From IMG/VR virus record IMGVR_UViG_3300045988_176357, positions 128,053-192,052 of that record: a stretch of DNA of 64,000 nucleotides; one strand, written 5' to 3'. This document shows positions 1 to 64,000 of this stretch, in pieces. Numbering within the stretch: the first letter of the stretch is position 1; each line of letters starts with the position of its first letter. Under the pieces are notes generated by a model. It was not told the origin of the DNA. It ran no database searches and saw only the letters and a program-made list of their open reading frames with translations. A program made the position numbers and the translations under genes. The DNA is from a virus.

Positions 1-21
1 AAGCAGGCCTGAAGCAAAAGG

Positions 22-106
22 AAGCCCGTAGAGGGCCGCTAAAGGGGTCACCCCCTCTCGTTATGTAGGGTTACCCTCTAACAGAAGCCAGAGAGGTCTA
101 AGAATG
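22..106 (+). promoter_or_regulatory. ~85-bp direct repeat, copy 1, ending at an ATG; contains inverted repeat aggggt-N-acccct
   Basis: Near-identical copy at 703-788; both abut ORF starts (104 and 786). Confidence 0.4.
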
Positions 107-334
107 CAAGGAACGGTCTTGGAGGAGGATATCGGAGCATGTAGAAGACAGCAGTATGCTTGCCAGACACCACTGTCGATGGTTTCGGTACTGATTTTGA
201 CGAGATTGAGGATGCACTGGCTTAACAGTTACGACGTAACTGTTACTGACATGTCGCTATTTTCAAGACACCAGAGGCAGCAGAATATCATAATCCATGC
301 CGAAAGGCTGTTTCGTGGGTATCTTCCTCCTTAA
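104..334 (+). CDS. hypothetical small protein
   Basis: ORF directly downstream of the repeated upstream element; no recognisable motif. Confidence 0.25.
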   Translation: MQGTVLEEDIGACRRQQYACQTPLSMVSVLILTRLRMHWLNSYDVTVTDMSLFSRHQRQQNIIIHAERLFRGYLPP

Positions 335-339
335 TGGTC

Positions 340-415
340 CTCCTTCTCCTCCCCTTAAGGTTCCCTGCACCTTCCTAATCCCCTCTATAGTCTCCCCTTA
401 ATGCTCCATCTGCCA
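340..415. repeat. polypyrimidine (CT-rich) tract
   Basis: Uninterrupted C/T-rich run on the + strand. Confidence 0.4.
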
Positions 416-417
416 TA

Positions 418-486
418 AGGTACTTTTTTTATTAGTTTACCTAGTGTACCTTGAAGAAGTACCGTAAGGTACTCTGAAAGGTACAC
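418..486. repeat. cluster of five GGTAC/GTACC motifs at short spacing
   Basis: ggtac...gtacc...gtacc..ggtac...ggtac seen in sequence; iteron-like. Confidence 0.35.
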
Positions 487-520
487 AAGATGGACCTGTA
501 TATTAGGTATTATTTATTAT

Positions 521-540
521 GATACCCCTAAAGGGGTATC
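521..540. promoter_or_regulatory. perfect 20-bp palindrome gataccccTAAAggggtatc
   Basis: Seen directly; followed by a second palindrome cgcgcat-a-atgcgcg near 565-580. Confidence 0.5.
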
Positions 541-702
541 GTAATAATATAATACTGCGCACGCGCATAATGCGCGACGCATATACACGTATACGCAACA
601 CATGCTGCGTCCGGGCTGCGCCCTGTCTGGCATGTGGAGCAAGGATTTTGATTTTCCTTTGTGTGGCACCATATGTTGCCAGAATCCCATCAAACCTAAA
701 AG

Positions 703-788
703 AAAGCCCGTAGAGGGCTCCCAAAGGGGTTACCCCCTCTCGTTGTGTAGGGTTACCCTCTAACAGAAGCCAGAGAGGCCTTAGAATG
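703..788 (+). promoter_or_regulatory. ~85-bp direct repeat, copy 2, immediately upstream of the Mre11-like gene
   Basis: ~93% identical to 22-106. Confidence 0.4.
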
Positions 789-1871: not shown

Positions 1872-2116
1872 TACAAGTCAAACACATGGATCTGTTTCAT
1901 TTCTGCCGGTTCGACAAGCTGTCGCTTGATGTACAGCCAGGTCTAACCAGAATAGCAGGTCCCAATGGCTCAGGTAAGACGACGGTCTTCAGAGCCCTGA
2001 TCTACGGTCTGACCGGTTGGTGTGATCCGACATGGGGCACACAAAGCGACCTGCAGCAGGACGATGAAAGCGTTCCAGGCTATGTCGAACTGACACTGTC
2101 GGTAGACGGCGAGGCT
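1853..2116 (+). CDS. Rad50/SbcC-like ATPase, exon 1 (Walker A GPNGSGKTT)
   Basis: N-terminal P-loop; ORF runs into the IStron 5' end (gct|taacaacc). Confidence 0.7.
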
Positions 2117-2605
2117 TAACAACCTCCATTGAGGAGTGATCCTCATTGCAAAGAAAGTGAATTGCTAATAGATCCCAAGAGCCTCACGATGCCTGTAACA
2201 AGGATCGAAAGAGAAAACAAAGAAGTGAGGATACCGCAAGGCGACAGTAAGCCTAAACGGGAGTGACAACGGACGTTTAGCAGCCGAGCCTTGTATCGAG
2301 AGATACCCGGTACAAGGAAGGTTCATCGACTAGGACATCGTGTCCGTACCCGAGCAGCCGTGTGCGTGATAACGCACGAAAGCAAGGGGAAGTACTCTGG
2401 CTCAGGAATGAGTCAATGAAATAGTCAGTGCTTCATGGAAACATGAAGAGTGGTCAGGAGTGACAACCTGAAACCTGCTACTGGGCGGCAACCGGTAGTG
2501 AACAGAACCATGGACTTCAATTGTATTGTTATTTCGTCAAGTTTTATTTACCGTTTTGATCTTTACAGAACGGAGTTATAATACTCTCAGTAACTGGAGA
2601 ACACT
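2117..2605 (+). ncRNA. group-I-like ribozyme portion of IStron A
   Basis: ~490 nt conserved across copies at 10680, 41443, 44361 and 51944, and the transposase-less copies at 31726 and 63703. Confidence 0.5.
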
Positions 2606-3739
2606 TTGGAACCAAGAGCACACATAATCAGATTGTACCCGACAAGGGCACAGGAGAAGCAGCTGAAGAATACCATCGGCTGCGCTCGTTATGCGTACAA
2701 TTGGGCTCTCGAGAAGTGGCGGGAGATGTATGCCGCACATGATAAGGACAAGGCTTCTCCAAAGCCAAGTGCCTTGAAGCTGACCAAGTTATGGACTCAG
2801 GAGAAGCCTGACTGGGCACATGAGACAGCTTATTGCAGCCAGCAAAGAGCGATACATAACGTAGGCGTCGCTTATCAGCGCCTTTAGAGGGGCTTATCGG
2901 CGAAGCCGAAGTTCCATAAGAAGGGCGGCAAGGAGACGTTTTACGTTGATAATGCGAAGGTCGCATGGTACGGCAATAGAATCCAGTTGCCCGACATCGG
3001 ACGTGTCCGCGTAGCGGAGCAGATCCGTTTCGAGGGCAAGGTAATGGGCTACACAGTGTCCCATTATGCCGGACAGTGGCATCTCATAGCTCAGGTCAAC
3101 GCCGAAGGCGACGTGAAACCTTACTGCGCCGATCCCGAGTCCGTCGTCGGTATCGACGTAGGACTTCTGAATCCGGCTGTAGCCTCCGATGGAACCGTCT
3201 TGCAGCTCCCCATAGAGAAGCTCCAAAAGCTTGACGCCAAGCTCAGGCGGCAGCAGAAGGCACTCTCCAGAAGTCAGCGCAACTCCAGAAACCACGCGAA
3301 GCTTCTCGTAAAGAAGCAGCGTACGCAGAATAAGATCAACAACATCCGAAAGGATGCAGTACATAAGTTCACGACCACCATTGCCAAGAGCCACGGCAAG
3401 GTAGTCATCGAAGATCTGGACATCCAAGGAATGAAGGATAAAGCTCCTTCAAGAGCCGTCAGAAGGGCGCATAACAGTTCCCTCATGGGCGCCATCCATC
3501 GGCAGCTCTCCTACAAAGTCCAGCACCTGATCAAGGTGAATCGCTTCTTCCCGTCTTCCAAGACCTGCAGCAACTGCGGGCACATAAGGAGCGCCCTTGA
3601 TTTAAGTGAACGTACATATCATTGCGACCACTGCGGAGCGGTCATCGACCGCGACCTCAATGCCGCAATCAACTTGATGAAATCAGGGCTGGTCAAGCCC
3701 GAAGCGTCTGTGGAGCAAGTCGGTACCGACTTGCGTTGA
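2606..3739 (+). CDS. tnpB: TnpB (IS605 OrfB family, RuvC-like + zinc finger CxxC..CxxC) with in-frame TAG at 2885-2887
   Basis: Same frame either side of the TAG; homologous to the intact copy at 11173-12288; C-terminal CSNCGH...CDHCG. Confidence 0.75.
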
Positions 3740-3779
3740 AGCAGAAAGTACAAACGGACGCAACGTCCGTAAGTTCATG

Positions 3780-5462
3780 ACAGAATACGTCCTGAAGAGG
3801 TTTGCAGGGACTGGTACGAAGCTGGTCGACACATTATGTAAAGACGATGCAATAATTGTTAAGAATCGTCAAAAAATAAATGCATGGTTAGAGCAGTTCA
3901 CAGGCATCTCTATGCCGGTAATGGCACAGTTGATGTGGTTGCGACAGGAAAACTCATCTTGGCTGCTGACGGCTACAGCTGCTCAGATCAACCAGTTCCT
4001 CGGTCTCATTTTCGACACCAAAAAGCTTGAGACCTACAGACAGCATCTGAAGAATGCCTGTGACAGCATACCGAAGCTGCGCGATGACTTTGACACAAGA
4101 AGGAAGCAAGCTGCAGAGACATTGCACCAGCAGTCCTCGCAGAAGGAGCTGCTGTCACAACAGCTGCAGGAACAGCAGGCACTTGTACAGGCTACACGGG
4201 AAACGCTGCAGGCATTTGGTAACAGCATGTCTGTAGCCGACCGTGACAAGATGCTGCGTCTGTGCGAACAGGAACTGGCAGTCTACAACAGAGACCTCGA
4301 CAAGTATAGGGATCTGCAGGAAGCTCCTGTCGTGGATATTGAAACCGAGACAGCAGCTGAGACTGCATTGGTCTCCAAAATATCTGCACAGCGGCTTGAA
4401 AAGTCAACTTGTGAGCGGATGCTGAACAGTGCCCGTGCCGATAGAGACAACAGCAAGTGGAGGCTTGATCAGCTGCGTCATATACATACGCCTGACACCT
4501 GTGAACTATGTGGTTGCAACCTCAGTACCAGTCCGGAAACGTACCGTAACAACAAAGTAAAACTGTTACTGCAGCAGTCTTTAAGCTACGAAGAGGCCAT
4601 CAGAACCTTTTCTGAGACCTACGAAACCAGTGCACATAAATGCATTGAACTGGAAAAGCGTATGGCCCTGCTTGAACATGCTATTGCTTCAGATAATAAA
4701 GTGCTGGAATCAATCGGACAGAAACGTGCTGAAAGACTCCGGTACATGGAACAGCTGCAGCATAAAACAGAGCTTCAACACAAGATTGAACAGGTGACTG
4801 CTGAAATCGAAAAGCTCAAGGCAACACCTGTGTACGATGCGTCTATATCGAAGCAGCAGATTGAAAGCATGCTTCGCAGTGCCGAAGCCAGAGAGACGGA
4901 ACTGAAATCCGCATATGAGACCTGTATTGCTTCTATTGCGTCTGCACAACAGATAATACATGATGCAGAAGAAGATGCTGTCAGGTATAAACGTAACGAA
5001 CGTGTGCGCCAGGTTCTGTCGACTTTGCGTGATGTTTTGTCACAAAGCAGAGCACAGGCAAGATACCTTAACAGCAAGATATCTGCCTTGAATGGCAATA
5101 TAGCTCACTATCTGCAACTGTCCGAGATGCCTTTCACAGTCTTCCTCGACCCTGCAGAGCATGTTTTCAAGTACAGGATGGATGATTGTGATGTGCAGCA
5201 TCAGGCAGGCATGCTGTCTGGTGCACAAAAGGCTGCCGCCGCAATTGCAATACAGATGTCGCTCGTTGTTACGGCAGTGCCGGATCTGACATTGCTTCTG
5301 CTGGATGAAGCGGATGCTTCGTTGTCACCGGAGAACAAAGTAATTGCTACCAAGCTTTACAGGGTCCTTGCAGAGACGCTCAGTGGAAGCGATGGCAGCA
5401 CATTCGTCATAAGTCAGTCAGACACTGTTGCTGCAGAATGTGACAGAGAAATAACACTATAA
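3780..5462 (+). CDS. Rad50/SbcC-like ATPase, exon 2 (coiled coil, CxxC zinc hook, signature motif and Walker B LLLDEAD)
   Basis: CELCGC hook in a coiled-coil region; C-terminal MLSGAQK...LLLDEADASLS. Confidence 0.7.
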   Translation, partial: TEYVLKRFAGTGTKLVDTLCKDDAIIVKNRQKINAWLEQFTGISMPVMAQLMWLRQENSSWLLTATAAQINQFLGLIFDTKKLETYRQHLKNACDSIPKLRDDFDTRRKQAAETLHQQSSQKELLSQQLQEQQALVQATRETLQAFGNSMSVADRDKMLRLCEQELAVYNRDLDKYRDLQEAPVVDIETETAAETALVSKISAQRLEKSTCERMLNSARADRDNSKWRLDQLRHIHTPDTCELCGCNLSTSPETYRNNKVKLLLQQSLSYEEAIRTFSETYETSAHKCIELEKRMALLEHAIASDNKVLESIGQKRAERLRYMEQLQHKTELQHKIEQVTAEIEKLKATPVYDASISKQQIESMLRSAEARETELKSAYETCIASIASAQQIIHDAEEDAVRYKRNERVRQVLSTLRDVLSQSRAQARYLNSKISALNGNIAHYLQLSEMPFTVFLDPAEHVFKYRMDDCDVQHQAGMLSGAQKAAAAIAIQMSLVVTAVPDLTLLLLDEADASLSPENKVIATKLYRVLAETLSGSDGSTFVISQSDTVAAECDREITL

Positions 5463-5472
5463 GGAGAACAGG

Positions 5473-6513
5473 ATGAAGTACAAGAAAGGTGAGTTCGGTT
5501 ACTGGTGGACAGTAATTAAGGGTAATAAGGATATAGAAGGCAAAGTGTATGTAGGTATTATATCTTGTCGTCGCTCTAGCTTGGTATCTCTTAAAGGCGC
5601 ACCAAAAGAGGTTGGCGGTAGTTTTTATTGCTCTGGCAACGCTCTGACATCACTTGAAGGCGCACCAAAAAAAGTTGGCGGTAATTTTGACTGTTCATAT
5701 AACAAGTTGACATCTCTTAAAGGCGCGCCAAAAGAGGTTGGCGGTGGTTTTGACTGTTCGTGCAACAAATTGACATCTCTTAAAGGCGCACCAAAAGAGG
5801 TTGGCGATGGTTTTGACTGTTCATACAACAAGTTGACATCTCTTAAAGGCGCACCGAAAAAAGTTAGTGGTTATTTTTATTGCTACAACAACGCTCTGAC
5901 AACACTTGAAGGCGCACCAAAAGAGATTGGCGATGGTTTTGACTGTTCATACAACAAGTTGACAACACTTAAAGGCGCACCAAAAGAGGTTGGTAGTTGT
6001 TTTTATTGTTCCGGCAATCCACAACTCAAAGAGCTCCTAGATAAGATGCCTACACAAGCTATATGTGGAGACGTGTATAAGTGGTGTGGAAAGATCTGGA
6101 GCTTCTTCGACGGCGTGCAGAAAGAGGTAGCAACGATACGCAAATCCGGCAGCATTACGGTGTACAAGATGAAAGACGGCACCTATGCTATGCACGACGG
6201 AGAGGCGTACGCGCATGGCAAAACACTCAAGGAAGCCAAAGCGGATCTCATCTATAAGCGCACATCAAGGGATCTCAGTGAATACAAGAAGTTCACCATG
6301 GATTCCAAGCTGCCGCTTGAGGAGTGCATCAAGATGTACCGCTCGATAACAGGAGCGTGTTCTCTGGGCACAAAGGAGTTCTGCTCGAAGAGGAAGCTCA
6401 AGAAGGCGTACACTGTTGGGGAAGTCATTGAGATCACAGATGGTGCGTATGGGAATGACAAACTTAAGGAGTTCTTTAAAGAAGGCAAATGTCTACAACA
6501 GATGAAACCGTGA
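5473..6513 (+). CDS. BspA-like leucine-rich repeat protein (22-aa repeats L.SL.GAPK.VGG.F.C..N.LTSL)
   Basis: Eight or more tandem repeats; N-terminus MKYKKGEFGYWW is shared with the gene at 9594. Confidence 0.6.
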   Translation: MKYKKGEFGYWWTVIKGNKDIEGKVYVGIISCRRSSLVSLKGAPKEVGGSFYCSGNALTSLEGAPKKVGGNFDCSYNKLTSLKGAPKEVGGGFDCSCNKLTSLKGAPKEVGDGFDCSYNKLTSLKGAPKKVSGYFYCYNNALTTLEGAPKEIGDGFDCSYNKLTTLKGAPKEVGSCFYCSGNPQLKELLDKMPTQAICGDVYKWCGKIWSFFDGVQKEVATIRKSGSITVYKMKDGTYAMHDGEAYAHGKTLKEAKADLIYKRTSRDLSEYKKFTMDSKLPLEECIKMYRSITGACSLGTKEFCSKRKLKKAYTVGEVIEITDGAYGNDKLKEFFKEGKCLQQMKP

Positions 6514-6621
6514 AAGCGATGAAAGAAGCTCTGGAAGGTGACCCTAAAGAACTGTTCAGTGCTCTGGCACACATTATGGTGCAATTCTTCAACAGAGAAC
6601 TGGTAAACTAAGGAGAACGGA

Positions 6622-7371
6622 ATGAAAGTGACAGAACTTGAAAGAAAAGAAGTTTGTACGCAAGTAAAGTATGCGTGGAATAAGAAGGTATTTGAGCTTG
6701 ACGACTGCCCTGACTGGGCTCAGTACGCAGCTGTTGACAAGGATGGAACCGCATTCTGGTGCAGTAACGAGCCAGATCTGTGTTCCTTCGGCTGGCTAAC
6801 CTCTCTGAAAGACAAATATAAGTCCATATGTGACGCTGATAAGCGTCCGCTTCTGTTCAAGACAGATGGCTGGGTCTACAGTCTGATAAAGAGACCAAAG
6901 TCTGCACACAAGAACGTATCGGCACACTTGTGCAGAGACAGCAAAGGCAGGTTTGTCAGCAGGGTCAAAGACGCCACACCCGATCTGCCTCAAACCCAGT
7001 ATCAGACAACAGAAGGCCACTATGCCTATGGCAGATGCAAATTGCTCGAATTCTCCGCACGTGAGCTCAGCGATGAGTATGGTAATGCAATGCTGCAACT
7101 GAAACTGCTGCTGAAGAACAAAAAGGGCGTTGTAGAGCTGGTCATAGATGTGCGTCCTGTCAGTAAGGAAAAAGGCGCACTGCGTTATTTTGTAGTGCAA
7201 TCAGGGCTTGAGCATGCACTCTTCAGTGCTTTGTTGCATAAAGACAAAGAGATCGACGCGGACTTATCTGCGATATGTCCTGTACTTTATATATACAGTA
7301 ATACTGACATACGTGAAATCAGGTTTCCAGCAGCATCATGCTGGAGAATCGAGCGTGAAATTGCACTGTAA
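6622..7371 (+). CDS. member of the 'CPDWAQYAAVD' small-domain paralog family (long form)
   Basis: FELDDCPDWAQYAAVDKDG...W motif. Confidence 0.5.
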   Translation: MKVTELERKEVCTQVKYAWNKKVFELDDCPDWAQYAAVDKDGTAFWCSNEPDLCSFGWLTSLKDKYKSICDADKRPLLFKTDGWVYSLIKRPKSAHKNVSAHLCRDSKGRFVSRVKDATPDLPQTQYQTTEGHYAYGRCKLLEFSARELSDEYGNAMLQLKLLLKNKKGVVELVIDVRPVSKEKGALRYFVVQSGLEHALFSALLHKDKEIDADLSAICPVLYIYSNTDIREIRFPAASCWRIEREIAL

Positions 7372-7382: not shown

Positions 7383-8087
7383 GTGAAAATGAAAGTAACA
7401 GATCTCGATACAAAAGACGTCATAGTAACACGTACAGAAAAACGGTACGTACTTAATGAGAAAGTGTTCGAACTTGATGACTGTCCTGACTGGGCTCAGT
7501 ACGCAGCTGTTGATGAGTGTGGGACTGCGTACTGGCACGAGAACAAGCCATGTCATATGTTGCACCAATGGTTTCACAGATCAGATAGCAGGTATAAGGC
7601 TATTGCTGATTACAGCTTTGATACCACCGACTGGCAGCACAGTCTTATCGAGCGACCCAAGAAGGTACTCGAGGTCACTATGGCTGACCTGGAGAAGAAA
7701 TATGGGTGCAAAGTCAAGCTTGTAAAGGGCTACGATACGCAAGAAAAGATAGATGTTACATCTGACGCTGTAGCTGAGACCAGCAGTAACTTAAGTACAG
7801 ATGTTTACAAGTTGGATACGCAAGTGTTCCTGCTTAACCAGTGTCCGTCTTGGGCTAAGTGGGCTGCTGTGGATCATGACGGTATTGCAAGCTGGTACAA
7901 CACTAAGCCAGTTCTCAGCTCAGACAAAAGATGGCAATTGCCGAAAGGCGTTTTAGGGTGCTGTATGCCAATTGAACGTGTCGGTACTGGACAATACATG
8001 CGCTTCGATGCATCGTCTTACTATGATAGTGTAGTGGAAAAGAAAGCGTGTTTGAGTCCATACAAAGCACGTAAATCCAATGCCTGA
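7383..8087 (+). CDS. 'CPDWAQYAAVD' family protein with two tandem domain copies
   Basis: Two CP(D/S)WA.(Y/W)AAVD motifs; central ...EVTMADLEKKYGCKVKLVK. Confidence 0.5.
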   Translation: MKMKVTDLDTKDVIVTRTEKRYVLNEKVFELDDCPDWAQYAAVDECGTAYWHENKPCHMLHQWFHRSDSRYKAIADYSFDTTDWQHSLIERPKKVLEVTMADLEKKYGCKVKLVKGYDTQEKIDVTSDAVAETSSNLSTDVYKLDTQVFLLNQCPSWAKWAAVDHDGIASWYNTKPVLSSDKRWQLPKGVLGCCMPIERVGTGQYMRFDASSYYDSVVEKKACLSPYKARKSNA

Positions 8088-10679: not shown

Positions 10680-11172
10680 TAACAACTCCCTTTAACCAGT
10701 GATGGTTATTGAACAAGAAAGTGAATTGCTAATAGATCCCAAGAGCCTCACGACGCCAATAAAATGGATCGAAAGAGAAAACAAAGAAGTGAGGATACCG
10801 CAAGGCGACAATAAGCCTAAACGGGAGTGACAACGGACGTTTAGCAGCCGAGCCATGCGTTCGACAGAACGCCAGCGCATGGAAGGTTCATCGACTAGGA
10901 CATTGTGTCCGTACCCGAGCAGCCATGTGCGTGATAACGCACGAAAGCAAGGGGAAGTACTCTTGGTTGGGAACAACCAAATGAAATAGTCAGTGCTTCA
11001 TGGAAACATGAAGAGCGGTTAGGAGTGACAACCTGAAACCTGCTACTGGGTGGCAACCGGTAGTGAACAGAACCATGGACTTCAATTGTACTTTAATTTC
11101 ATCAAGAACATTTAACGTTTTGATCTTTACAGATACGGTGTATAATACACCTAAACTGAAGGTGTAAATTTC
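10680..11172 (+). ncRNA. group-I-like ribozyme portion of IStron B
   Basis: Conserved with the other copies. Confidence 0.5.
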
Positions 11173-12288
11173 ATGATCAGAACAAACGTCATAAGATTGT
11201 ACCCGACAAGGGCACAGGAAGCGCAGCTGAATAACACAGCTGGCGCTTGTCGTTTCGCATGGAATAAAGCCCTCAGTTACTGGGATGAGCAATATGAAGC
11301 TCATCTTAAGGATAAATCCATTCCGTTACCGATTTCTTCCAAAGTAGCAAGCTGGTATAAAGACAACCGCGAAGAATGGGCGTCCGAAACATCTTCTGTC
11401 TGTCAGCGCCAGGAAATACTTCACCTTGGCAAAGCCTTCCACAGCTACTTTAGACGTCCGGACCATTTCGCACATTCGAAGTTCCACAAGAAGGGAATTA
11501 AGGACTCATTCGAGGTTCCGAATGACAAGGCGAAAATCAAAGACGGCAGACTTTCATTGCCGAAGATAGGCGAAGTCAAAATGGCTGAGCCGCTTCGCTA
11601 CCAAGGCAAGATATGCAGCTACACAGTAAAGAAGTCAGGCGGCAACTGGTATGTTCACATACCTGTGGAAACAGGTAAGGACGAGAGAGTTCGTTGCATC
11701 AATCCAGAGTCCGTCGTCGGTATCGACGTAGGACTTCTGAATCCGGCTGTAGCCAGCGACGGCACCAAGCTGGAGCTCCCAAAGGAAACCTTGGACAAGC
11801 TCGACGCCAAACTCAGGCGACAGCAAAAGGCACTCTCCCGTTCACAAAGGAACTCCAGAAACCATGCCAAGCTTCTTCTCAAGAAGCAGCGTACTCAAAA
11901 TAAGATCAACAACATCCGAAAGGATGCAGTACACAAGTTCACGACCGCCATTGCCAAGAGCCACGGCAAGGTAGTCATTGAGGATCTGGATATAAAAGAG
12001 ATGAAGGCCAAGGCCCCCGCACGTTCAGTGCGTCGCGCCTACAACAGCTCCCTCATGGGCGCCATTCGCTGGCAGCTCTCTTACAAAGTCCAGCACCTGA
12101 TCAAGGTGAATCGTTTCTTCCCGTCTTCCAAGACCTGCAGCAACTGCGGGCACATAAAGGGCGACCTCACCGTAGGTGAACGTACATATCATTGCGACCA
12201 CTGCGGAGCGGTCATCGACCGCGACCTCAACGCCGCAATCAACTTGATGAAAGCAGGGCTGGTCAAGCCCGAAGTGTCTGTGGAGTAA
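11173..12288 (+). CDS. tnpB: TnpB, intact, 371 aa
   Basis: IS605 OrfB N-terminus MIRTNVIRLYPT; C-terminal zinc finger; Shine-Dalgarno site upstream. Confidence 0.85.
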   Translation: MIRTNVIRLYPTRAQEAQLNNTAGACRFAWNKALSYWDEQYEAHLKDKSIPLPISSKVASWYKDNREEWASETSSVCQRQEILHLGKAFHSYFRRPDHFAHSKFHKKGIKDSFEVPNDKAKIKDGRLSLPKIGEVKMAEPLRYQGKICSYTVKKSGGNWYVHIPVETGKDERVRCINPESVVGIDVGLLNPAVASDGTKLELPKETLDKLDAKLRRQQKALSRSQRNSRNHAKLLLKKQRTQNKINNIRKDAVHKFTTAIAKSHGKVVIEDLDIKEMKAKAPARSVRRAYNSSLMGAIRWQLSYKVQHLIKVNRFFPSSKTCSNCGHIKGDLTVGERTYHCDHCGAVIDRDLNAAINLMKAGLVKPEVSVE

Positions 12289-13415: not shown

Positions 13416-13766
13416 ATGAAAATAACAGACCTCGACACAAAAAATGTACAGGTAACACGTACAGAAAAACGGTACATATTGAACGATAAGGTCTTCCAGC
13501 TTGACTGCTGCCCTGACTGGGCTCAGTATGCAGCTGTGGATGAGGATGGACATGCTTACTGGTACGAGTATAAACCGAACCAATATTCTGCCAGTTGGAG
13601 AAATACGGCACCTCGTTTAGTGTCGCACATACATACTGACACACTTTTCGATGCCACCGACTGGTGGAATAGCCTTATCAGGCGCCCACAGAAGGTACTT
13701 GAGGTTACTATGGCAGACCTGGAGAAGAAGTTTGGATGTAAAGTGAAAATTGTAAAGGATATTTGA
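13416..13766 (+). CDS. 'CPDWAQYAAVD' family small protein
   Basis: MKITDLDTKNV...CCPDWAQYAAVDEDG...EVTMADLEKKFGCKVKIVKD. Confidence 0.5.
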   Translation: MKITDLDTKNVQVTRTEKRYILNDKVFQLDCCPDWAQYAAVDEDGHAYWYEYKPNQYSASWRNTAPRLVSHIHTDTLFDATDWWNSLIRRPQKVLEVTMADLEKKFGCKVKIVKDI

Positions 13767-15400: not shown

Positions 15401-15401
15401 A

Positions 15402-20594: not shown

Positions 20595-20643
20595 CTAAAA
20601 CATTCAGCCGGGTACTTATGTGCCCGGCATAAGGACAAACGAA

Positions 20644-41431: not shown

Positions 41432-41442
41432 CCAGCACACAA

Positions 41443-47933: not shown

Positions 47934-47944
47934 AAGGAAAAACG

Positions 47945-49262: not shown

Positions 49263-50148
49263 TGTCGTAGTGATTGGGTGCGGAGGTATCGGCGGCTATC
49301 TTTGTCGACTGCTTCCACAGACAATGGCATGCCTGTATGTCGATTCCCTGGGTGCCGACCAGGCTCAGCAGCTCATGCAGTCGGAAGGGATGTCTGATGA
49401 CGTGCGAGCTTCAGGCGCAGTCTTCAGCTCCCTTACCCTTATAGATGGCGACACGTTCTCAGGACATAACGCACTTAGGCAGGAAGGAACGGCTGGCAGC
49501 AAGCTGGCAACTGTCATGTCTATGATACGCAGCACAGACGCCTTCAGTACCTGGCTCAACGCCACGGAACTTGTCGGGTATAACAACTACATCACGCCCA
49601 GGAACATACATAAAATCTTAGATCCCTTGTATAACGTCGTCATATTCCTGTGTGTCGACAACCATAAAACAAGGTACGAAGTGACCAGATGGGCAGTGGA
49701 TCAGAAAACACAGAATATCCTGATCATTAACGGCGGCAATAAGAAAACAGCCGGGAATGTCACGGTATTCCAGAATAACGCAGGCAAGCTTCTCGATCCC
49801 CCTATCTACAAGCTGTATCCTGAAGTGACGGACAAGTTTGATCGTCGTCCCGACGAGATAGACTGCGGCTCAGTGTCGGTAACCAACGACCAGACAGCAG
49901 TGACCAACAATATGATAGCATCTATAATGCTCGCCATGTTCAGCAAGTATGTTCGCACAGGGGGCTTCGACCAGAAAACCAGACATAAAGATGCCAATGG
50001 AAACAACATTGTAGTCAGGAAAAATGAAGTCGTAGTCGACTTCGAAACCATGACTATGCAATCGTTCGCACATTCACCGGACACAGACAATACGCCTTTG
50101 CAGTCGGCACTCGAGGGAGTTCCGGAAGGCGAGACAGAAATCATATAA
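49195..50148 (+). CDS. E1-like (ThiF/MoeB family) adenylyltransferase
   Basis: VIGCGGIGG Rossmann motif; LIDGDTFSGHNALRQ compared with DxDxVExSNLNRQ. Confidence 0.6.
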   Translation: MMQLLEMKMIHVVRHGMIRNPLNVVVIGCGGIGGYLCRLLPQTMACLYVDSLGADQAQQLMQSEGMSDDVRASGAVFSSLTLIDGDTFSGHNALRQEGTAGSKLATVMSMIRSTDAFSTWLNATELVGYNNYITPRNIHKILDPLYNVVIFLCVDNHKTRYEVTRWAVDQKTQNILIINGGNKKTAGNVTVFQNNAGKLLDPPIYKLYPEVTDKFDRRPDEIDCGSVSVTNDQTAVTNNMIASIMLAMFSKYVRTGGFDQKTRHKDANGNNIVVRKNEVVVDFETMTMQSFAHSPDTDNTPLQSALEGVPEGETEII

Positions 50149-50521: not shown

Positions 50522-51943
50522 ATGATCATCATTGCAACTGCTAACAACAACGAAAACCTCAACAACATCAGGATCAACCTTGACAACAGCATCTCTCTCG
50601 GTCAGCTTCTCGACAGAGATGATGTTCGTGCATTCTTCCACAATGCCAGCAAAGAGAGCATTCTGGCAAGCCTCGTTACCATTGACGGACTCGATGCCTA
50701 TGCCATTACGAATGCGAGCTCTCTGACTGTTGACAATACTATGGAATTGCAGTTCGACATCTACGGCAGAGCACCGGAGACCGCACATACAGCTGCTGCT
50801 TCCGCCGGGTTCGTCACAATTACTCAGGGCGGAGGTTTCAACAGCAAGCGTGTGCCTATTGTGTCAGATACGACAAGAGCAGGGGATGTGCTTACACAGG
50901 ATGTGGCCAATTTCTTCGCCACAACTGTGGATACTCTGCACAATATGCGTATTCTTATCAATGATGTCGAGGCGGAAACAACAGCTGTACTGCACGACGG
51001 CGACGCGATTACTCTCATGTCCAGAAAGTGCGGCGACAAGGGGGCATGTGTACCCATTCTTGCAATTACGCATACTGACGGATCTGTGACGAGACATGCA
51101 GTCCTTGCAGGTTCCAGGCTCAAGGAATGTCTCTCCAGGATTGTTCCCGGTGCGGTAGTGCTGTCTATCGACGGTACAGCGGTACCCATGAACTTCTATG
51201 ATGCTATTGTAGAAGGCAAGCTGGTTGACAAGGACATGCAAGTGACTGTCAACGATAACAAGAAGTGCACGGTGCATTGCTGCGCCAATGACGGCAGTGA
51301 TCCGGTCGACATGATCCTGGATGATGGCAGTTCTGTGATGGACCTGCTTACCAAAGTACAGGACAAGTTTGAAAACGCTGAGATCTATGTCTTTGACGTG
51401 GACGGCGATCTGGTACCGGAAGCTTTCGCCGATACCATCCTGACTAATACACTTGTCGTTGATGGTATGTATGTAACTTTCAGTTCGCTGCGTGAGATGC
51501 CTGTTGTACATGGCTATATGAACATGGAAGACGACAGCGAAGAAGATGAAGAAGATGAAGAAGATGGTGCTGAGTATGCAGATGACGAGCAGGTACTTGA
51601 AGGTCCTGCAGAAGATGCTGTAGGCGCCGTAACAGTCGTTCTTCCCGGGGGCTTCAGCACCTCTCAGGTCGCAATCAGGAACAATGTGACGAAGCTTCGT
51701 GATGTTGTTCTCAGCGCACGTATTCTGAATATGTCTGCGATGAACGAAAGCCAGGCGCAGACTCTCGTATACACAGTGAACGATGTCGAGAGCAATCTCG
51801 ATGATACTCTGAGCATCGGTGATGTGATCCGGATGTCTGCACGTAAAGCAGGCGACAAAGGAAGTGCATTGAAAGTTACTGTCAAGCTGATGGATGCCAC
51901 CGAATTCCGGTATGACGTGGAGCCGGGGACAAGGCTCGAGGCT
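50522..51943 (+). CDS. multi-domain ubiquitin-like protein, exon 1
   Basis: Repeated ~90-aa modules ending (I/M)S(R/A)K(C/A)GDKG; acidic linker; ORF runs into the IStron E 5' end. Confidence 0.45.
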
Positions 51944-53606
51944 TAACAACCTCCATTGAGGAGTGATCCTCAATGCAAAGAAAGTGAATTGCTAATAGAT
52001 CCCAAGAGTCTCACGACGCCTTTAACAAGGATCGAAAGAGAAAACAAAGAAGTGAGGATACCGCAAGGCGACAGTAAGCCTAAACGGGAGTGACAACGGA
52101 CGTTTAGCAGCCGAGCCTTGTATCGAGAGATACCCGGTACAAGGAAGGTTCATCGACTAGGACATCGTGTCCGTACCCGAGCAGCCGTGTGCGTGATAAC
52201 GCACGAAAGCAAGGGGAAGTACTCTGGCTCAGGAATGAGTCAATGAAATAGTCAGTGCTTCATGGAAACATGAAGAGTGGTCAGGAGTGACAACCTGAAA
52301 CCTGCTACTGGGCGGCAACCGGTAGTGAACAGAACCATGGACTTCAATTGTATTGTTATTTCGTCAAGTTTTATTTACCGTTTTGATCTTTACAGAACGG
52401 AGTTATAATACTCTCAGTAACTGGAGAACACTTTGGAACCAAGAGCACACATAATCAGATTGTACCCGACAAGGGCACAGGAGAAGCAGCTGAAGAATAC
52501 CATCGGCTGCGCTCGTTATGCGTACAATTGGGCTCTCGAGAAGTGGCGGGAGATGTATGCCGCACATGATAAGGACAAGGCTTCTCCAAAGCCAAGTGCC
52601 TTGAAGCTGACCAAGTTATGGACTCAGGAGAAGCCTGACTGGGCACATGAGACAGCTTATTGCAGCCAGCAAAGAGCGATACATAACGTAGGCGTCGCTT
52701 ATCAGCGCCTTTAGAGGGGCTTATCGGCGAAGCCGAAGTTCCATAAGAAGGGCGGCAAGGAGACGTTTTACGTTGATAATGCGAAGGTCGCATGGTACGG
52801 CAATAGAATCCAGTTGCCCGACATCGGACGTGTCCGCGTAGCGGAGCAGATCCGTTTCGAGGGCAAGGTAATGGGCTACACAGTGTCCCATTATGCCGGA
52901 CAGTGGCATCTCATAGCTCAGGTCAACGCCGAAGGTGATGTGAAACCTTATTGTGCCAATCCAGAGTCCGTCGTCGGTATCGACGTAGGACTTCTGAATC
53001 CTGCTGTAGCCTCCGATGGAACCGTCTTGGAGCTCCCTATTGAGAAGCTTCAGAAGCTCGACGCCAAACTCAGGCGACAGCAGAAGGCACTCTCCCGTTC
53101 ACAAAGAAACTCCAGAAACCACGCGAAGCTTCTCATAAAGAAGCAGCGTACACAGAATAAGATCAACAACATCCGTAAGGATGCAGTACATAAGTTCACG
53201 ACCACCATTGCCAAGAGCCACGGCAAGGTAGTCATCGAAGATCTGGACATCCAAGGAATGAAGGATAAAGCTCCTTCAAGAGCCGTCAGAAGGGCGCATA
53301 ACAGTTCCCTCATGGGCGCCATCCATCGGCAGCTCTCCTACAAAGTCCAGCACCTGATCAAGGTGAATCGCTTCTTCCCGTCTTCCAAGACCTGCAGCAA
53401 CTGCGGGCACATAAGGAGCGCCCTTGATTTAAGTGAACGTACATATCATTGCGACCACTGCGGAGCGGTCATCGACCGCGACCTCAATGCCGCAATCAAC
53501 TTGATGAAATCAGGGCTGGTCGAGCCCGAAGCGTCTGTGGAGCAAGTCGGTACCGACTTGCGTCGAAGCAGAAAGTACAAACGGATGCAATGTCCGTAAG
53601 TTCATG
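51944..53606 (+). mobile_element. IStron copy E (~98% identical to copy A) inside the multi-ubiquitin-like gene
   Basis: Same 5' end (gaggct|taacaacctccattgaggagtgatcctca) and right end; junction ...RLEA|TDFLMS is in frame. Confidence 0.7.
52433..53599 (+). CDS. tnpB: TnpB with in-frame TAG at 52712-52714
   Basis: Same TAG position as copy A. Confidence 0.75.
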
Positions 53607-59430: not shown

Positions 59431-59475
59431 AACATTCAGCCGGGTACTTATGTGCCCGGCATAAGGACAAACGAA

Positions 59476-60483
59476 ATGAAAACAGAAAAAGTGCTGAAGA
59501 AGAACGCAATCAAGGCCTATAAAGCCTTTAACAGTGACCTTACCTGCAAAGGCTTCCAATATGAAGTCGGGAAGGAATACCACCATATAGGCAAGCTTGA
59601 GCTGTGTGAGTCGGGTTTCCATGCCTGCCCAAAGCTGACCGACTGCTTCTACTTTTACCCATTCAACAAAACTAAAACCAGAGTAGCTGAGGTGCTGGTC
59701 TGGGGTAAAGTCGAGTACGAAGACAGAGGTAACAAGCTCTGCGCCTCAAACATCAAGGTAGTCAGAGAACTTGCATGGGGCGATGTGTTGTTTCTGTGCA
59801 ACAGCGGCTACGGTAACAGCGGTTACGGTAACACCGGCAACGATAACACCGGCAACTGGAATAGCGGTGACTGTAATAGCGGCAACCTTAACAACGGCAA
59901 CAATAACACCGGCAACCGTAACTCCGGCGACTGTAATAGCGGCAACTGGAATAGCGGCAACTATAACAGCGGCGCCTATAATACAGGCGACTGGAACAGC
60001 GGCAACCTTAACAACGGCAACAATAACAGCGGTTACCGTAACAGCGGCGCCTATAATACAGGCGACTGGAACAGCGGCAACCTTAACAACGGCAACAATA
60101 ACAGCGGCAACTGGAATAGCGGTGACTGGAACAGCGGACACTTAAACACTCCGGCACAGAAATATACATTTATCTTCAACAAACAAGTTAAAAAGTCAGT
60201 GTTGGAAAGTACTGAGTTTCCGTCATTCATGTTCTTTGTTCTGACAGAGTGGGTTCCTGCCCGCGACATGTCACAGGTGGAGAAAGAGCAGCATCCTGAG
60301 TATGCTATTACAGGCGGTTACCTAAAGAGGTACGACTACAAGGAAGCCTTCAGGAAGTCCTTCGAGGAGGCAAAGCGACTCCCGGATTGGCCTGAACAAC
60401 TTAAGAGACTGAAGGCGCTGCCGAATTTCGATGCCAAGATATTCGAGGAAATATCAGGCATCAAGGAAGAGGAACTTGTTTAA
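59476..60483 (+). CDS. NxGxx repeat protein, paralog 6
   Basis: Upstream ~60 nt and N-terminus identical to 20594-20700. Confidence 0.6.
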   Translation: MKTEKVLKKNAIKAYKAFNSDLTCKGFQYEVGKEYHHIGKLELCESGFHACPKLTDCFYFYPFNKTKTRVAEVLVWGKVEYEDRGNKLCASNIKVVRELAWGDVLFLCNSGYGNSGYGNTGNDNTGNWNSGDCNSGNLNNGNNNTGNRNSGDCNSGNWNSGNYNSGAYNTGDWNSGNLNNGNNNSGYRNSGAYNTGDWNSGNLNNGNNNSGNWNSGDWNSGHLNTPAQKYTFIFNKQVKKSVLESTEFPSFMFFVLTEWVPARDMSQVEKEQHPEYAITGGYLKRYDYKEAFRKSFEEAKRLPDWPEQLKRLKALPNFDAKIFEEISGIKEEELV

Positions 60484-60498
60484 AGAAAGGAGGACAAA

Positions 60499-60957
60499 AT
60501 GATAACAGCAAGTGAACTTTATTGGATTTTCAGATGCGACAGCATACATGACATGCTGACAGCAAGTCTTATCGTGCTTGGTATCGCATCAGCAATAGGT
60601 TGTATCATTATCTTAGCTATGTGCTTTAGCAGCCCCTGGGATGATGACGTAAGGTCGTGGTTCGAACCTGACAGTGATACAAGTACCGAGCGTAAACAGA
60701 TACTTACAGCTGTTAAGTGCGTTGCATGTCTGCTTGGTATTGTATGTATGCTGGCTGTCGGCAAGATTATGCTGCCTACAACGAAAGAGCTTGTGCTGAT
60801 AAAGGTACTGCCTGAAGTGGTAAACAGCAAGTTTGTCCAGGAAGATCTGCCCAGTGATATCCGTAAATTGTACACAGCAGCGGTACAGTCAACTTTGAAT
60901 ACATTGACAGACTCACAACAAAACACAAAGAAAGGAAAAGAATATGCTGACCATTGA
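60499..60957 (+). CDS. hypothetical membrane protein
   Basis: Two hydrophobic segments. Confidence 0.4.
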   Translation: MITASELYWIFRCDSIHDMLTASLIVLGIASAIGCIIILAMCFSSPWDDDVRSWFEPDSDTSTERKQILTAVKCVACLLGIVCMLAVGKIMLPTTKELVLIKVLPEVVNSKFVQEDLPSDIRKLYTAAVQSTLNTLTDSQQNTKKGKEYADH

Positions 60958-61219
60958 CGACTATTTCGATAACTGCGAGAATCCCGACTACACATATAGC
61001 TGTCCCGAATGTGGAAGCACCGTTGAGCGCGATGACATTGAATGTCCCGAGTGCGGCTATCGGTTTGAAGACCCTGCAGATGTGTCAGAAATAGACGGCA
61101 TGATATCTGACTCTGTCTCAGGTCAGCTGCTTGTAGACAGCGCATACAGTATGCCTGACAGTGAGGATCTTGATGATATCATGGATGACATTATGAAAGA
61201 GGCCCGAAATGAAGCATAA
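60944..61219 (+). CDS. small acidic zinc-ribbon protein
   Basis: CPECG..x..CPECGY. Confidence 0.35.
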   Translation: MLTIDDYFDNCENPDYTYSCPECGSTVERDDIECPECGYRFEDPADVSEIDGMISDSVSGQLLVDSAYSMPDSEDLDDIMDDIMKEARNEA

Positions 61220-61589
61220 AGTCGGCGTACCGGTAGTGGCTCAGGTGCGTAGGTTTCTTGCACTCTCAATCAAGGAACATACAGACATCAAGCGTGACTA
61301 TAGAACTCGCGATTCCAAGTGTGACGAGCATGCAGAAAGCTGTACGAAGTACCAACGACGCCTATATGCTTCAGTATACTATGACAGCTGCAAGTTTATT
61401 TGCGCAATGAATGGGCTGCAGAGAGCAATCAATTACAGGCTCAGACATAAAGATATGAGCGGGTATGTCGACAAGATCACCCAGGATAAGTGGTACGCCG
61501 AGTTGACACGAATTCTTCTCCGATCACTCTTGGCCGAAGACACAATAGAACAGTTCATCAACTACATGGAGGGAAAGAGCACAAAATAA
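61209..61589 (+). CDS. hypothetical protein
   Basis: ORF. Confidence 0.35.
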   Translation: MKHKVGVPVVAQVRRFLALSIKEHTDIKRDYRTRDSKCDEHAESCTKYQRRLYASVYYDSCKFICAMNGLQRAINYRLRHKDMSGYVDKITQDKWYAELTRILLRSLLAEDTIEQFINYMEGKSTK

Positions 61590-61601
61590 AGGACACAGCC
61601 T

Positions 61602-62342
61602 ATGTTGCAGGCAATCAAACGACTCATCAAACGTATCACAATCAACCTAATCAGAGCAGTAAGGAAACTATTCACAACAAACACAACGGCAAGCGTTGCC
61701 ACTAAAACAAAGAAAGAAGAAAGAATGAAAAACACGAAAACAACCGCAATCACTCTCGCATCCGCAACCTCCTACAACCTCCAGTTCTTCCGTAAGGATG
61801 GACAGCGCTGGTTCGCCCAGAGAGACGTCACGTGCGTCTACGGGGCCAACTACTATCCCGGTGCTAACATTGGCCGCCCTGTGATAGTGTCCAAGACAGA
61901 TTTCGAGTACTTCGCCAACAACAAGAGAGCCTACAGAGGCCGTGTGTACCTTCCTGAGAAGGAACTTGTACAGTACATCAAGGACAGAACCGAAGTCGCT
62001 CTGGACGCACGCAAGATGCACATGAAAGGCAACCACACAGCAGGCTGGTCGACTTTCGCAGCTGACGCAATCGAGCAGCTGTTTGGTATGAAGGTACCTG
62101 TCAGTGCTGTGGCAACCAAAGCACTCAGCCCGTCCACTAACCCGGAGAGAAGGAGAGTGGAGGAGGCGCTCGCCAACGACAGCAACGCACGCAGAGCATA
62201 TGTCTCCGGTCGTCGCGCACGCGCGTACGCGAGAGCGATCACGTTCAACATGGACAAACAGGAGTCGCTGCTGTACAGCGTCTTCGGAAAGGAAAGTAAT
62301 GACAGTAATAGAAATCGCAATCGGCAGACCAAAGGAAAATGA
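61602..62342 (+). CDS. Bro-N-like domain protein (phage antirepressor family)
   Basis: LQFFRKDGQRWFAQRDVTCVYG resembles Bro-N. Confidence 0.4.
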   Translation: MLQAIKRLIKRITINLIRAVRKLFTTNTTASVATKTKKEERMKNTKTTAITLASATSYNLQFFRKDGQRWFAQRDVTCVYGANYYPGANIGRPVIVSKTDFEYFANNKRAYRGRVYLPEKELVQYIKDRTEVALDARKMHMKGNHTAGWSTFAADAIEQLFGMKVPVSAVATKALSPSTNPERRRVEEALANDSNARRAYVSGRRARAYARAITFNMDKQESLLYSVFGKESNDSNRNRNRQTKGK

Positions 62343-62607
62343 AGCTTCCGAGACTGTATTCGTCAGTGATACCTATGTAGCTGCAAATTGGCTGCTGGCA
62401 AAGGCTGCGCGTACATTGGAATCAGGCAGCTTCAAGAAACTGGAGGGCAGACGGCGCTTCAATGTCGAGCTGACTCAGCAGTATCTTGACAAGCAACTGG
62501 AAGAGGACAGTGTGTATCTTGAATTCGGGAAGCAGAACGACATTCTGTTCTGGGTCAATCTGAATGTTGTCGAAGTGATCGACACAGCAGAAGTCGCCGA
62601 AGCTTAA
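62299..62607 (+). CDS. hypothetical small protein
   Basis: ORF. Confidence 0.3.
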   Translation: MTVIEIAIGRPKENEASETVFVSDTYVAANWLLAKAARTLESGSFKKLEGRRRFNVELTQQYLDKQLEEDSVYLEFGKQNDILFWVNLNVVEVIDTAEVAEA

Positions 62608-62754
62608 CAGCACCAGTCGTAGAGATTCACTGTGCACACGTATAAGTGCACAATTCCTGCAGGGGCATCGGATACAAGTCCGGTGTCCCTGCTCTTTAGT
62701 ACGCTACAGCATTTGTTACCGGCCAATAAGACCGGCAGCAACAAAAGAGGTATT

Positions 62755-63700
62755 ATGACAAAGACTATTGTCAAAAGAGACGGACGCACAGAAGCGTTCG
62801 ATGCCGCCAAAATCAAAGCAGCAATCGAAGCAGCAATGGTAGCTGTGCACAAAGGGCTGACAGGTGACCTCGCACAGAAAGCTGTGCAGCTGTCAGAGCA
62901 GATCGCACAGAGCACAGAAGACGGTGCCAGCATAGAAAGCATCCAGGACAGGGTCGAGAAGGGTCTGATGGATGCAGATCTGATAGAGGAAGCCAAAGCC
63001 TACATCAAGTACAGAGCGGCGCGTACGGATATACGTGAGGCCCGCACGCACCTGATGAAGATCATCGACAGCTTCTTCACAGAGAAGCAGGACGACGGCA
63101 GCTCGCACAAAGAAAATGCGAACATCAATGCGTCCTCAGTATCTGGAGCCTTCTACAGAATCGGCTCGGAGGCAAGCAAGGACTATTATACCAGGTGTCT
63201 GATTCCGTCTGAATTCGTAGAAGCGCATACGAACGGATATTTGCATTATCACGATGCAGACTATTATGGTCTCAGTCTCAACTGTATGCAGCATGACCTC
63301 GGTAAGATGTTTAAGAAAGGTTTCTCCACAGGCAACGCCTATATAGGGGAGCCTCAGAGCATCACATCAGCAATGGCGCTGACTTGTGTTATTCTGCAGA
63401 GCGGGCAGACGGACCTGTTCGGCGGCGAGAGCATTCCGGCATGGGACTTCTACATGGAACCCTATGTTGAGAAGAGCTTTAAGAAGGCGCTGAAGAAGCA
63501 TCTCGAGAACATGGCCTTTGCGCCTGCGAACATGCAGGAGCTGTGGGTCAAGGAAAACGGGTACCAGGAACACACACCTGTGTTCGAGAACGACGACTTA
63601 TACAAGGCCTACAAGTGGGCCAAGCGTGACGTCGAAGCTGAGACGTACCAGGCTGCACAAGCCATGGTGTATAACTTGAATTCCTTAGCCAGCAGGGCCT
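62755..63700 (+). CDS. nrdD: anaerobic ribonucleotide reductase NrdD (class III), 5' exon with ATP cone
   Basis: NGYLHYHDADYYG...GNAYIGEPQSI aligns with T4 NrdD; ORF ends at a TGA that straddles the intron 5' end. Confidence 0.75.
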
Positions 63701-63702
63701 GA

Positions 63703-64000
63703 TTGGCCCCTTCACACCGCGAGGTGTGTCGAACAAGAAAGTGAATTGCTGGGACACCTTAACGGGTCATGCCGAAGGCAATCAGCAGCCGAGCCTTGTA
63801 TCGAGAGCTACCCGGTACAAGAAAGGTTCATCGACTATCCCATAAGGAATGGGAGTACCCGACAAGTGAAGGGGAAGCACTCTTGGTTGGGAACAACCAA
63901 ATGATATAGTCAGTGCTTCATGGAAACATGAAGAGTGGTCTCGAAAGAGAAACCTGGCGGTACGTAACGAGTACCGTTGAACAGAACCTTGGTGTGTACA
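63703..64000 (+). ncRNA. transposase-less IStron-type group-I-like intron in nrdD (runs to the window edge)
   Basis: ttggccccttcacaccgcgaggtgtgtcgaacaagaaagtgaattgctggg...; same type as polA intron 1; window ends at ...ccttggtgtgtaca. Confidence 0.5.

Follow-up and report, generated by a model that had tools for sequence, protein, structure and literature searches.

A human-gut phage with recoded TAG, most probably read as glutamate in its late genes and putatively intron-borne nucleases

The 64,000-nucleotide stretch of viral DNA analyzed here (positions 128,053 to 192,052 of the IMG/VR record IMGVR_UViG_3300045988_176357; hereafter the window) raises the question why TAG almost never terminates its genes and, if the codon is used as sense in this genome, which amino acid it specifies. 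The window represents the final 64,000 bases (128,160-192,159) of the 192,159-bp ENA scaffold LIJU14-1_SAMEA2338819 scaffold_51, the offset being derived from sbcD at record 128,945-130,030. Its exact protein matches come from human-gut metagenome assemblies, and it is the early/replication arm of an approximately 200-kb tailed phage from the human gut. According to our overall reading, which we hold with a probability of roughly 0.8 on sequence evidence, the meaning of TAG would be switched in a stage-specific manner by a suppressor tRNA with the anticodon CUA, tRNA(CUA), that inserts glutamate. Stop-codon recoding combined with code-neutral early genes is of a known kind; the glutamate reading of TAG is what is new.

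The scarcity of TAG as terminator, which had been claimed in an initial annotation of the window, was evaluated on the plus strand, where all substantial open reading frames (ORFs) are located; the GC skew is positive along the entire window. Mechanical tiling of plus-strand ORFs (n = 89) returned 43 TGA, 41 TAA and 5 TAG stops, and curation gave the following picture for the non-mobile genes:

1-64000, plus strand: early/replication arm with 60 non-mobile genes, without in-frame TAG in 15,296 codons; stops 32 TGA, 27 TAA and 1 TAG.

None of the seven mobile genes has TAG as terminator (TAA or TGA in all cases). Among the stop trinucleotides in the off-frames of the 60 non-mobile genes, TAG accounts for 15.5%, and against this background about 9 TAG stops would be expected by chance (P for at most one in 60 = 0.0005), hence the claimed near-absence is real. 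Because TAG is absent as sense codon and nearly absent as stop, the early genes can be read identically in both codes, as the initial annotation had also assumed for early and replication genes. A related phage with standard code, the 176-kb IMG/VR contig L006 (UViG_3300045988_174965; terminase 46% identical, no TAG), ends 3 of 36 tiled ORFs with TAG, including genes of 540 and 433 amino acids, compared to one of 60 genes in the window. Among 20 additional early genes just beyond the window no convincing TAG stop was found; the sole TAG-ender there is a 144-aa minus-strand ORF without family match.

That the genome is TAG-recoded can be regarded as practically certain. The gene for the large terminase subunit (Pfam GpA_ATPase) on the same scaffold contains 21 in-frame TAG but neither TAA nor TGA, and its neighbours contain 8-14 in-frame TAG each; this terminase region is situated 3-9 kb upstream of the window. 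Further late loci were taken from a strain whose terminase is 96% identical (95-kb IMG/VR contig). The 37 late genes examined (13,019 codons) hold 539 TAG, and the coding density at four late-gene loci rises from 53-68% in code 11 to 90-98% with TAG as sense. A comparison of codes, which had been recommended before, showed that the coding density of the window alone, 85.0% in code 11, increases to 88.7% when TAG is taken as a sense codon but only to 85.8% when TGA or TAA is, the gain being largest with TAG. Late-gene TAG was seen in 23 independently assembled loci, which excludes assembly artefacts. The earlier proposal of a partial TAG reassignment is hence well supported by the TAG-rich terminase region and by the tRNA(CUA) gene in the closely related strain.

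The codons GAA and GAG (GAR) have been displaced to very different extents. TAG makes up 70-95% of the Glu-like codons in most late genes, 30% in a sheath-like gene and 0% in the early genes. Such near-replacement of GAR implies further selection, because one or two TAG would suffice for gating. The Logan contig SRR14509770_23530 (L032) contains a head-gene block (2397-6628; capsid-like protein of 337 aa, scaffold-like protein of 418 aa and others) with a TAG share of 0-5%, and of 21% in one small ORF, while the genes flanking this block show 67-95%. A late gene of the same contig (6679-9804, 1,041 aa) bears 56 TAG and apparent intein-like segments, recognized by eye from Hint-like 'CF..G' and 'HNC' junction motifs.

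Inside the window, four genes are assembled once TAG is treated as sense:

32533-33219, plus strand: GIY-YIG homing endonuclease gene free of TAA and TGA but with 15 TAG in frame; TAG stands at the position of the invariant catalytic Glu (residue 79).
33489-34475, plus strand: HNH-like endonuclease gene with 20 in-frame TAG, mostly absent from another strain.
2606-3739, plus strand: tnpB copy in which a single TAG (2885-2887) is in frame.
52433-53599, plus strand: tnpB copy near-identical to the one at 2606, with a single in-frame TAG at the corresponding site (52712-52714).

These are the TAG-containing homing endonuclease genes and tnpB copies already noticed in the initial annotation, which had concluded that selected genes need suppression; the in-frame codons agree with this view. 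The two endonuclease genes hold 35 TAG and no TAA or TGA over 556 codons and display the late-gene signature, TAG reaching 6.3% and GAR 2.3%. The HNH motif (LHHAD...NLVLLCANCHQILH) was seen by eye in a protein without Pfam match. The GIY-YIG gene is 99.85% identical to a copy in a second strain (L034 12267-12953), where the flanks are only about 94% identical and all 15 TAG are kept; this pattern suggests a recent spread by homing.

Which amino acid is inserted was approached by comparison with the standard-code relative. GenBank phages offer only terminase relatives of 21-24% identity (tblastn; mostly phages of Bacillota), which were dropped as basis for residue inference because they are too distant. 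In the alignment with the terminase of L006 the 21 TAG sites face Glu eight times, Asp five times, Ala three times and Gln never, in part within conserved strings (x marking TAG: SSQAxW versus SSQAEW and LALKxDPR versus LALREDPR). Aligned orthologous pairs, seven of them carrying TAG, provided 91 TAG sites, at which the relative has Glu 34, Asp 10, Ser 8, Ala 7 and Gln 2 times. With substitution frequencies measured on the same alignments, Glu reaches a log-likelihood of -219.2 and the runner-up Gln one of -247.0, a difference of 27.8 (bootstrap 95% interval 17.8-36.9). At TAG sites with at least two identical flanking residues, Glu is found in 25 of 44 cases and Gln in 2, and ordinary Gln sites retain Gln in the relative at 21%, compared to the 2 of 91 at TAG sites. 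Hence, glutamate is very likely the main residue at TAG as judged from these sequences, and the reading as Gln (code 15), which the initial annotation had proposed for testing, is not sustained. Asp and Arg were also considered and rejected (log-likelihood -260.7 and -281.1, respectively). The same applies to pyrrolysine: Lys occurs at 1 of 91 TAG sites with a log-likelihood of -269.4, and the tRNA fits the general model, although no search was aimed at pyl genes.

Codon usage and protein charge point in the same direction. The early genes use GAA plus GAG at 6.15% and Gln codons at 3.58%, whereas the 37 late genes use GAA plus GAG at 2.37% and TAG at 4.14%, adding up to 6.51%, and Gln codons at 4.77%. 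Glutamate is favoured, because TAG fills the GAA plus GAG deficit almost exactly, while the Gln codons are not depleted. Glutamine is disfavoured, because the cost-free change from CAG to TAG would be expected first, yet it is unused. Moreover, the summed net charge of seven late proteins amounts to +57 with Gln and to -45 with Glu at the TAG positions, and that of their orthologues to -57.

The GIY-YIG endonuclease permits a test at family level. An exhaustive HMMER search with the Gln-translated query, which is biased against Glu, found 149 homologues, and the column of TAG residue 79 contains Glu in 143 of 146 of them; we take this column to be the catalytic Glu (E75) of I-TevI. Ten of the 15 TAG columns have Glu as their most frequent residue; its summed column frequency is 5.0, compared to 0.87 for Gln, and the Pfam GIY-YIG score of the window protein is 34.1 bits with Glu and 24.6 bits with Gln. 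The match to the GIY-YIG domain exceeds the Pfam threshold. With TAG masked as X, a word-indexed protein search returned only the protein itself, and a phmmer search of the masked protein against the PDB gave no meaningful match. The TAG site in tnpB was uninformative regarding the residue, since other copies carry Phe, Ser or Ile there.

The tRNA(CUA) gene (L009 2636-2709; sequence GCUCCCAUAGUUUAAUGGCAGAACAGCGGACUCUAAAUCCGCCAGAUCUUGAGUUCGAAUCUCAGUGGGAGCG) is located about 37 kb upstream of the window start beside a tRNA-Met gene. It was detected by ARAGORN and scores 61.4 bits with the Rfam tRNA model; the ARAGORN label 'tRNA-Pyl' reflects only the anticodon, and the tRNA matches the general tRNA model end to end. 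Its features comprise G1-C72, the discriminator G73, U11-A24, U13.G22, U35 and A37. Among the 119 matches listed for cellular tRNAs with the acceptor stem GCUCCCA/UGGGAGC, 88 are tRNA-Glu, 69 of these having the anticodon CUC, one base from CUA. The identity elements of tRNA-Glu have been described, as has the need of bacterial GatCAB for U1-A72, a pair that is typical of tRNA-Gln (PMC9976931, PMC2811023); tRNA(CUA) has G1-C72 instead. In a BLAST search against GenBank phages the matches, 76-82% identical, were Arg, Trp, Asn, Lys and suppressor tRNAs alike and hence uninformative regarding the amino-acid identity of the tRNA. A scan of IMG/VR for the same tRNA with any anticodon returned only the same contig, and a syntenic tRNA in L006, sought via the capsid-like protein, gave no match. 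On L032 (1-110, where this contig ends) the homology to the suppressor tRNA breaks off within the anticodon, and the unrelated sequence upstream of the break ends in G, as expected for a group I intron; hence, the tRNA(CUA) gene may bear an intron in some strains.

Several results weigh against glutamate and have to be considered together. The Pfam score of the terminase ATPase domain is 36.4 bits with Gln and 35.0 bits with Glu. The tRNA(CUA) was read in the strain with 96% terminase identity and not in the scaffold of the window itself; it does not possess U34 and C36, on which the GluRS of E. coli relies strongly, and its variable loop has 6 nt, whereas a missing residue 47 is a trait of tRNA-Glu. 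Its closest cellular sequences among the matches listed are tRNA-Arg(UCU) with an identity of 0.79, followed by tRNA-Glu with 0.75, and its D arm resembles that of tRNA-Arg(UCU) from candidate-phyla bacteria, but without their A20. Finally, in a comparison of two strains TAG and CAG were exchanged at 10 of about 119 sites, similar to the 10.4% at two-fold C/T sites, while TAG and GAG were never exchanged, and the TAG-CAG pair is also the polymorphism seen most often at TAG sites across the population (50 columns). The near-neutral impression from two strains was reversed, because data from 23 loci with synonymous controls put the TAG-CAG exchange below the TTG-CTG exchange. This population set (two strains and 21 metagenome loci, 6,762 codon columns, internal controls) contains TAG and CAG together in 0.075 of columns, compared to 0.195 for TTG and CTG, a synonymous control of the same mutation type, and to 0.095 and 0.061 for the replacement controls Ile-Val and Lys-Arg. 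TAG and GAA/GAG coexist in 0.044 of columns compared to 0.036 for the G/T change at four-fold sites, and the standard Glu-Gln exchange between GAR and CAR is found in 0.004. Judged from these frequencies, the TAG-CAG exchange is a tolerated replacement made cheap by transition, whereas the TAG-GAR exchange is synonymous-like.

A competing explanation is ordinary code 15, in which tRNA(CUA) inserts Gln, as it does in crAss-like and Lak phages, and the Glu-like signal reflects merely the chemical similarity of Glu and Gln. It has a precedent in crAss-like phages, for which the prediction of TAG as Gln was confirmed by mass spectrometry (PMC9523058; 10.1101/2021.08.26.457843), and it would accommodate the prevalence of CAG as alternative codon, the near-neutral two-strain comparison and the 1.4 bits gained by the GpA_ATPase domain. 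However, it would require that about 64% of the Glu positions in late proteins, including the invariant catalytic Glu, were turned into Gln, while CAG and CAA, which are freely convertible to TAG, were left untouched. It is also at odds with the rarity of Gln at aligned TAG sites (2 of 91, compared to 21% at ordinary Gln sites), with a charge of +57 where orthologues have -57, with a TAG-CAG frequency far below that of the synonymous change of the same type (0.075 versus 0.195), and with G1-C72 in place of the U1-A72 typical of tRNA-Gln. We therefore regard code 15 as quite improbable. Slightly more credit, though still little, is due to a mixed decoding, in which TAG gives Glu as well as Gln, for example by partial amidation of the Glu-charged suppressor or by two competing enzymes. 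In the population, GAR as well as CAG are seen as alternatives to TAG (22 and 53 counts, respectively), and the hybrid tRNA(CUA) matches no single isotype well; nevertheless, the conserved and catalytic Glu positions encoded by TAG suggest that Glu is inserted mostly, and G1-C72 disfavours bacterial GatCAB (PMC2811023).

The recoding could also be without relevance for the window, if TAG stops were rare by composition or chance and the endonuclease genes were dead foreign copies. TAG stops are infrequent in many bacteria and phages, and TAG is the rarest stop trinucleotide in the whole window (451, compared to 841 TAA and 1217 TGA). Against this explanation stand the deficit relative to the off-frame background (P = 0.0005), the exclusive occurrence of TAG among the stop codons within the endonuclease genes (35 TAG and 0 TAA/TGA in 556 codons), the conservation of 15 of 15 TAG in the second-strain GIY-YIG gene, the heavily recoded late genes on the same scaffold and the suppressor tRNA in the strain with 96% terminase identity. 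It can hardly be upheld.

The results suggest the following scenario. The phage would switch the meaning of TAG during infection, the early genes being read alike before and after the switch. GluRS would load tRNA(CUA) with Glu, given the Glu-type acceptor stem (G1-C72, G73), U11-A24 and U13.G22, and without the U1-A72 needed by bacterial GatCAB the Glu would escape conversion to Gln. In analogy with published recoded phages, the early genes would be made with the host machinery alone, and the late genes and putatively intron-borne nucleases only after the suppressor tRNA has appeared. Such a gating role of TAG, proposed by analogy, appears somewhat better than an even bet. Standard Glu codons are kept in the early genes and in the most abundant head proteins.

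Recoding of TAG has been reported for gut phages using code 15, such as crAss-like phages, Lak megaphages and Phassvirus (10.1101/2021.08.26.457843, PMC9523058, PMC8346664, PMC10607447). Already published are TAG or TGA recoding in gut phages, the accumulation of recoded codons in late genes, suppressor tRNAs, and the little use of the recoded codon as terminator even in close relatives with standard code. The present phage shares with the code-15 gut phages hosts that are presumed to use the standard code, the concentration of in-frame TAG in structural and packaging genes, TAG-free early and replication genes, a phage tRNA(CUA) and the rarity of the recoded codon as terminator. In contrast, their TAG aligns with Gln, whereas here it aligns with Glu (34 compared to 2 of 91 sites), TAG is the majority Glu codon in most late genes, and release factor 2 (RF2) is absent from the parts read. 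More precisely, neither RF2 nor an aminoacyl-tRNA synthetase was found among the Pfam-scanned window proteins, about 125 of about 200 kb having been read and the late ORFs having been partly scanned. TAG is taken as Gln in all phage cases found; in the Lak study some Glu alignments at TAG were noted, but the conclusion was still Gln. In the TGA-recoded Agate phages an early gene harbours a group I intron with an endonuclease that favours the recoded TGA, and it has been proposed that the in-frame stops delay the endonuclease until after the code switch (10.1101/2021.08.26.457843). The endonuclease encoded in the early region of the present phage is likewise borne by a putative group I intron and prefers the recoded stop codon; different from the Agate phages, the codon is TAG, the inferred residue is Glu, and two endonuclease genes plus two TnpB genes carry it.

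The reading of UAR as Glu is otherwise known only from eukaryotic nuclear codes, namely those of peritrich ciliates and Blastocrithidia nonstop (PMC12153298, PMC11687900). These codes are cellular and genome-wide and have UAA reassigned as well, whereas the phage system would be virus-borne, stage-specific, restricted to UAG and operating in a bacterial host. Reports on TAG as Glu in any phage were not found in searches covering open-access papers and bioRxiv, beyond which a report may exist. The present phage lineage is likely the first virus for which a glutamate meaning of UAG is reported, and the first such case beyond eukaryotic nuclei. The reassignment would be stage-specific and extreme: tRNA(CUA), with its Glu-type acceptor stem, would decode a codon that stands in for 70-95% of GAA/GAG in most late genes and also in the putatively intron-borne homing endonucleases.

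Furthermore, the residue assignment is of practical importance, because recoded TAG becomes Gln in the output of gene callers and pipelines (prodigal-gv, Pharokka-gv, table 15). If the glutamate reading is true, about 4% of the late-protein positions of this lineage (about 1 in 25), catalytic glutamates included, receive an incorrect residue in such annotation, which also flips the predicted charge and weakens homology and structure prediction; other clades assigned to 'code 15' are possibly mistranslated, too. It also raises the questions by which route Glu gets onto a tRNA with CUA anticodon, given that GluRS normally reads the anticodon, whether the indirect Gln pathway in hosts without GlnRS makes Glu the easier outcome of an amber suppressor, and which selection drove TAG to 70-95% of late-gene Glu codons, beyond the needs of gating. 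A natural Glu-inserting amber suppressor might be of interest for genetic-code engineers.

Regarding the individual window ORFs with TAG as first stop, those at 2606-2887 and 52433-52714 are N-terminal tnpB pieces, which read on in frame past the TAG. The others are as follows:

519-713, plus strand: low-complexity ORF in frame with and upstream of sbcD; probably non-coding.
21893-22300, plus strand: the sole well-supported gene with TAG as first stop (22289-22291); 16 synonymous and 3 non-synonymous strain differences.
38605-38814, plus strand: probably not a gene; 4 synonymous and 8 non-synonymous differences between strains, overlapping 38319-38648.
49003-49188, plus strand: low-complexity ORF in frame with and upstream of the ThiF/E1 gene; probably not a gene.

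The initial annotation had named two TAG-ending ORFs, of which the one at 21893-22291 is a real gene, whereas the one at 38605-38814 has no coding signature. In the former, TAG is followed by TAC GTG TAA, i.e. a TAA (22298-22300) stands two codons on, and read-through of the TAG would append just three residues (the TAG position plus Tyr-Val).

All TAG-bearing genes of the window are, according to the sequence comparisons, within group I intron-like mobile insertions. Rfam reported nothing in the window at gathering thresholds; with E-value thresholds nine group I intron-like RNAs were found, all below the gathering score, of which five are directly 5' of tnpB genes, three in the surroundings of the endonuclease genes and one within nrdD. 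The relevant elements are:

2115-3782, plus strand: IStron-like insertion of 1,668 nt that splits sbcC, with a group I intron-like RNA (2116-2448) followed by tnpB.
31711-35212, plus strand: putative intron region with the two endonuclease genes; RF00028 matches at 31711-31981, 32177-32485 and 34884-35212.
2116-2448, 10683-11013, 41390-41693, 44333-44611 and 51931-52275: RF00028 matches 5' of tnpB (E 1e-8 to 0.3), which with these genes form five IStron-like units.
11173-12288 (plus strand), 41838-42923 and 44756-45841: tnpB copies without TAG.

The matches around the endonuclease genes score 26-41 bits (E 5e-7 to 0.012; gathering score 50). The segment 2115-3782 is exactly missing in a sister strain, in which sbcC is a single gene of 646 aa; this strain is also without the tnpB 41838 unit and most of the HNH-like gene. 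IStrons consist of a group I intron fused to an IS200/605-type tnpB, for example CdISt1 of Clostridioides difficile. The insertion resembles them by a group I intron-like RNA directly 5' of tnpB, by its position inside a gene and by the empty site in the sister strain, but differs from known IStrons by its location in a phage genome, by Rfam scores below the gathering threshold and by splicing that is only predicted. An ORF-less RNA resembling a group I intron (about 320 nt; 46.7 bits, E 1e-8) interrupts the anaerobic ribonucleotide reductase gene nrdD, which is left as two ORFs; it is found at 63690-63933 in the window and at 10236-10559 in L001.

A megablast search with 24 kb of the window gave no match among GenBank phages, and tRNA genes were not found in the window. 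Pfam recognized an sbcD-like phosphoesterase (786-1871), an SMC/sbcC-like ATPase, a superfamily-2 helicase, a RecA/KaiC-like ATPase with intein, RusA, ThyX, anaerobic ribonucleotide reductase, reverse transcriptase, Prok-E2 and ThiF/E1 proteins as well as five tnpB genes. Of the gene names in the initial annotation, sbcD, helicase, thyX, E1, E2 and tnpB obtained support from these matches. The RecA/KaiC-like ATPase gene (15865-18363, 832 aa) contains an intein with Hint and LAGLIDADG parts and, unlike the free-standing endonucleases, no TAG. The reverse transcriptase gene (45943-46791) overlaps the Prok-E2_D gene (46772-47692), and a ThiF/E1-like gene follows at 49195-50148, so that 45943-50148 represents a ubiquitin-like conjugation set beside a reverse transcriptase. 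A match to the formate/nitrite transporter family (14864-15679, 58 bits) is an unusual phage cargo.

Repeated elements are also present in the window. At least six paralogous pentapeptide-repeat genes (20620-21891, 24648-25625, 35743-36831, 36849-37733, 38843-39721 and 59452-60483) are visible as DNA with a 15-nt period, with additional copies past the window end in L001; four of them (20620, 24648, 35743 and 59452) have an N-terminal DUF7666. A coding motif of 96 nt (peptide approximately 'CPDWAQYAAVDxDG') occurs in eight copies across several small genes without assigned function (6679-6774, 7455-7550, 7815-7910, 13482-13577, 25701-25796, 26560-26655, 37816-37911 and 39798-39893). Finally, a 63-nt unit is repeated six times in tandem at 5518-6017, within a gene for a protein of 346 aa (5473-6513).

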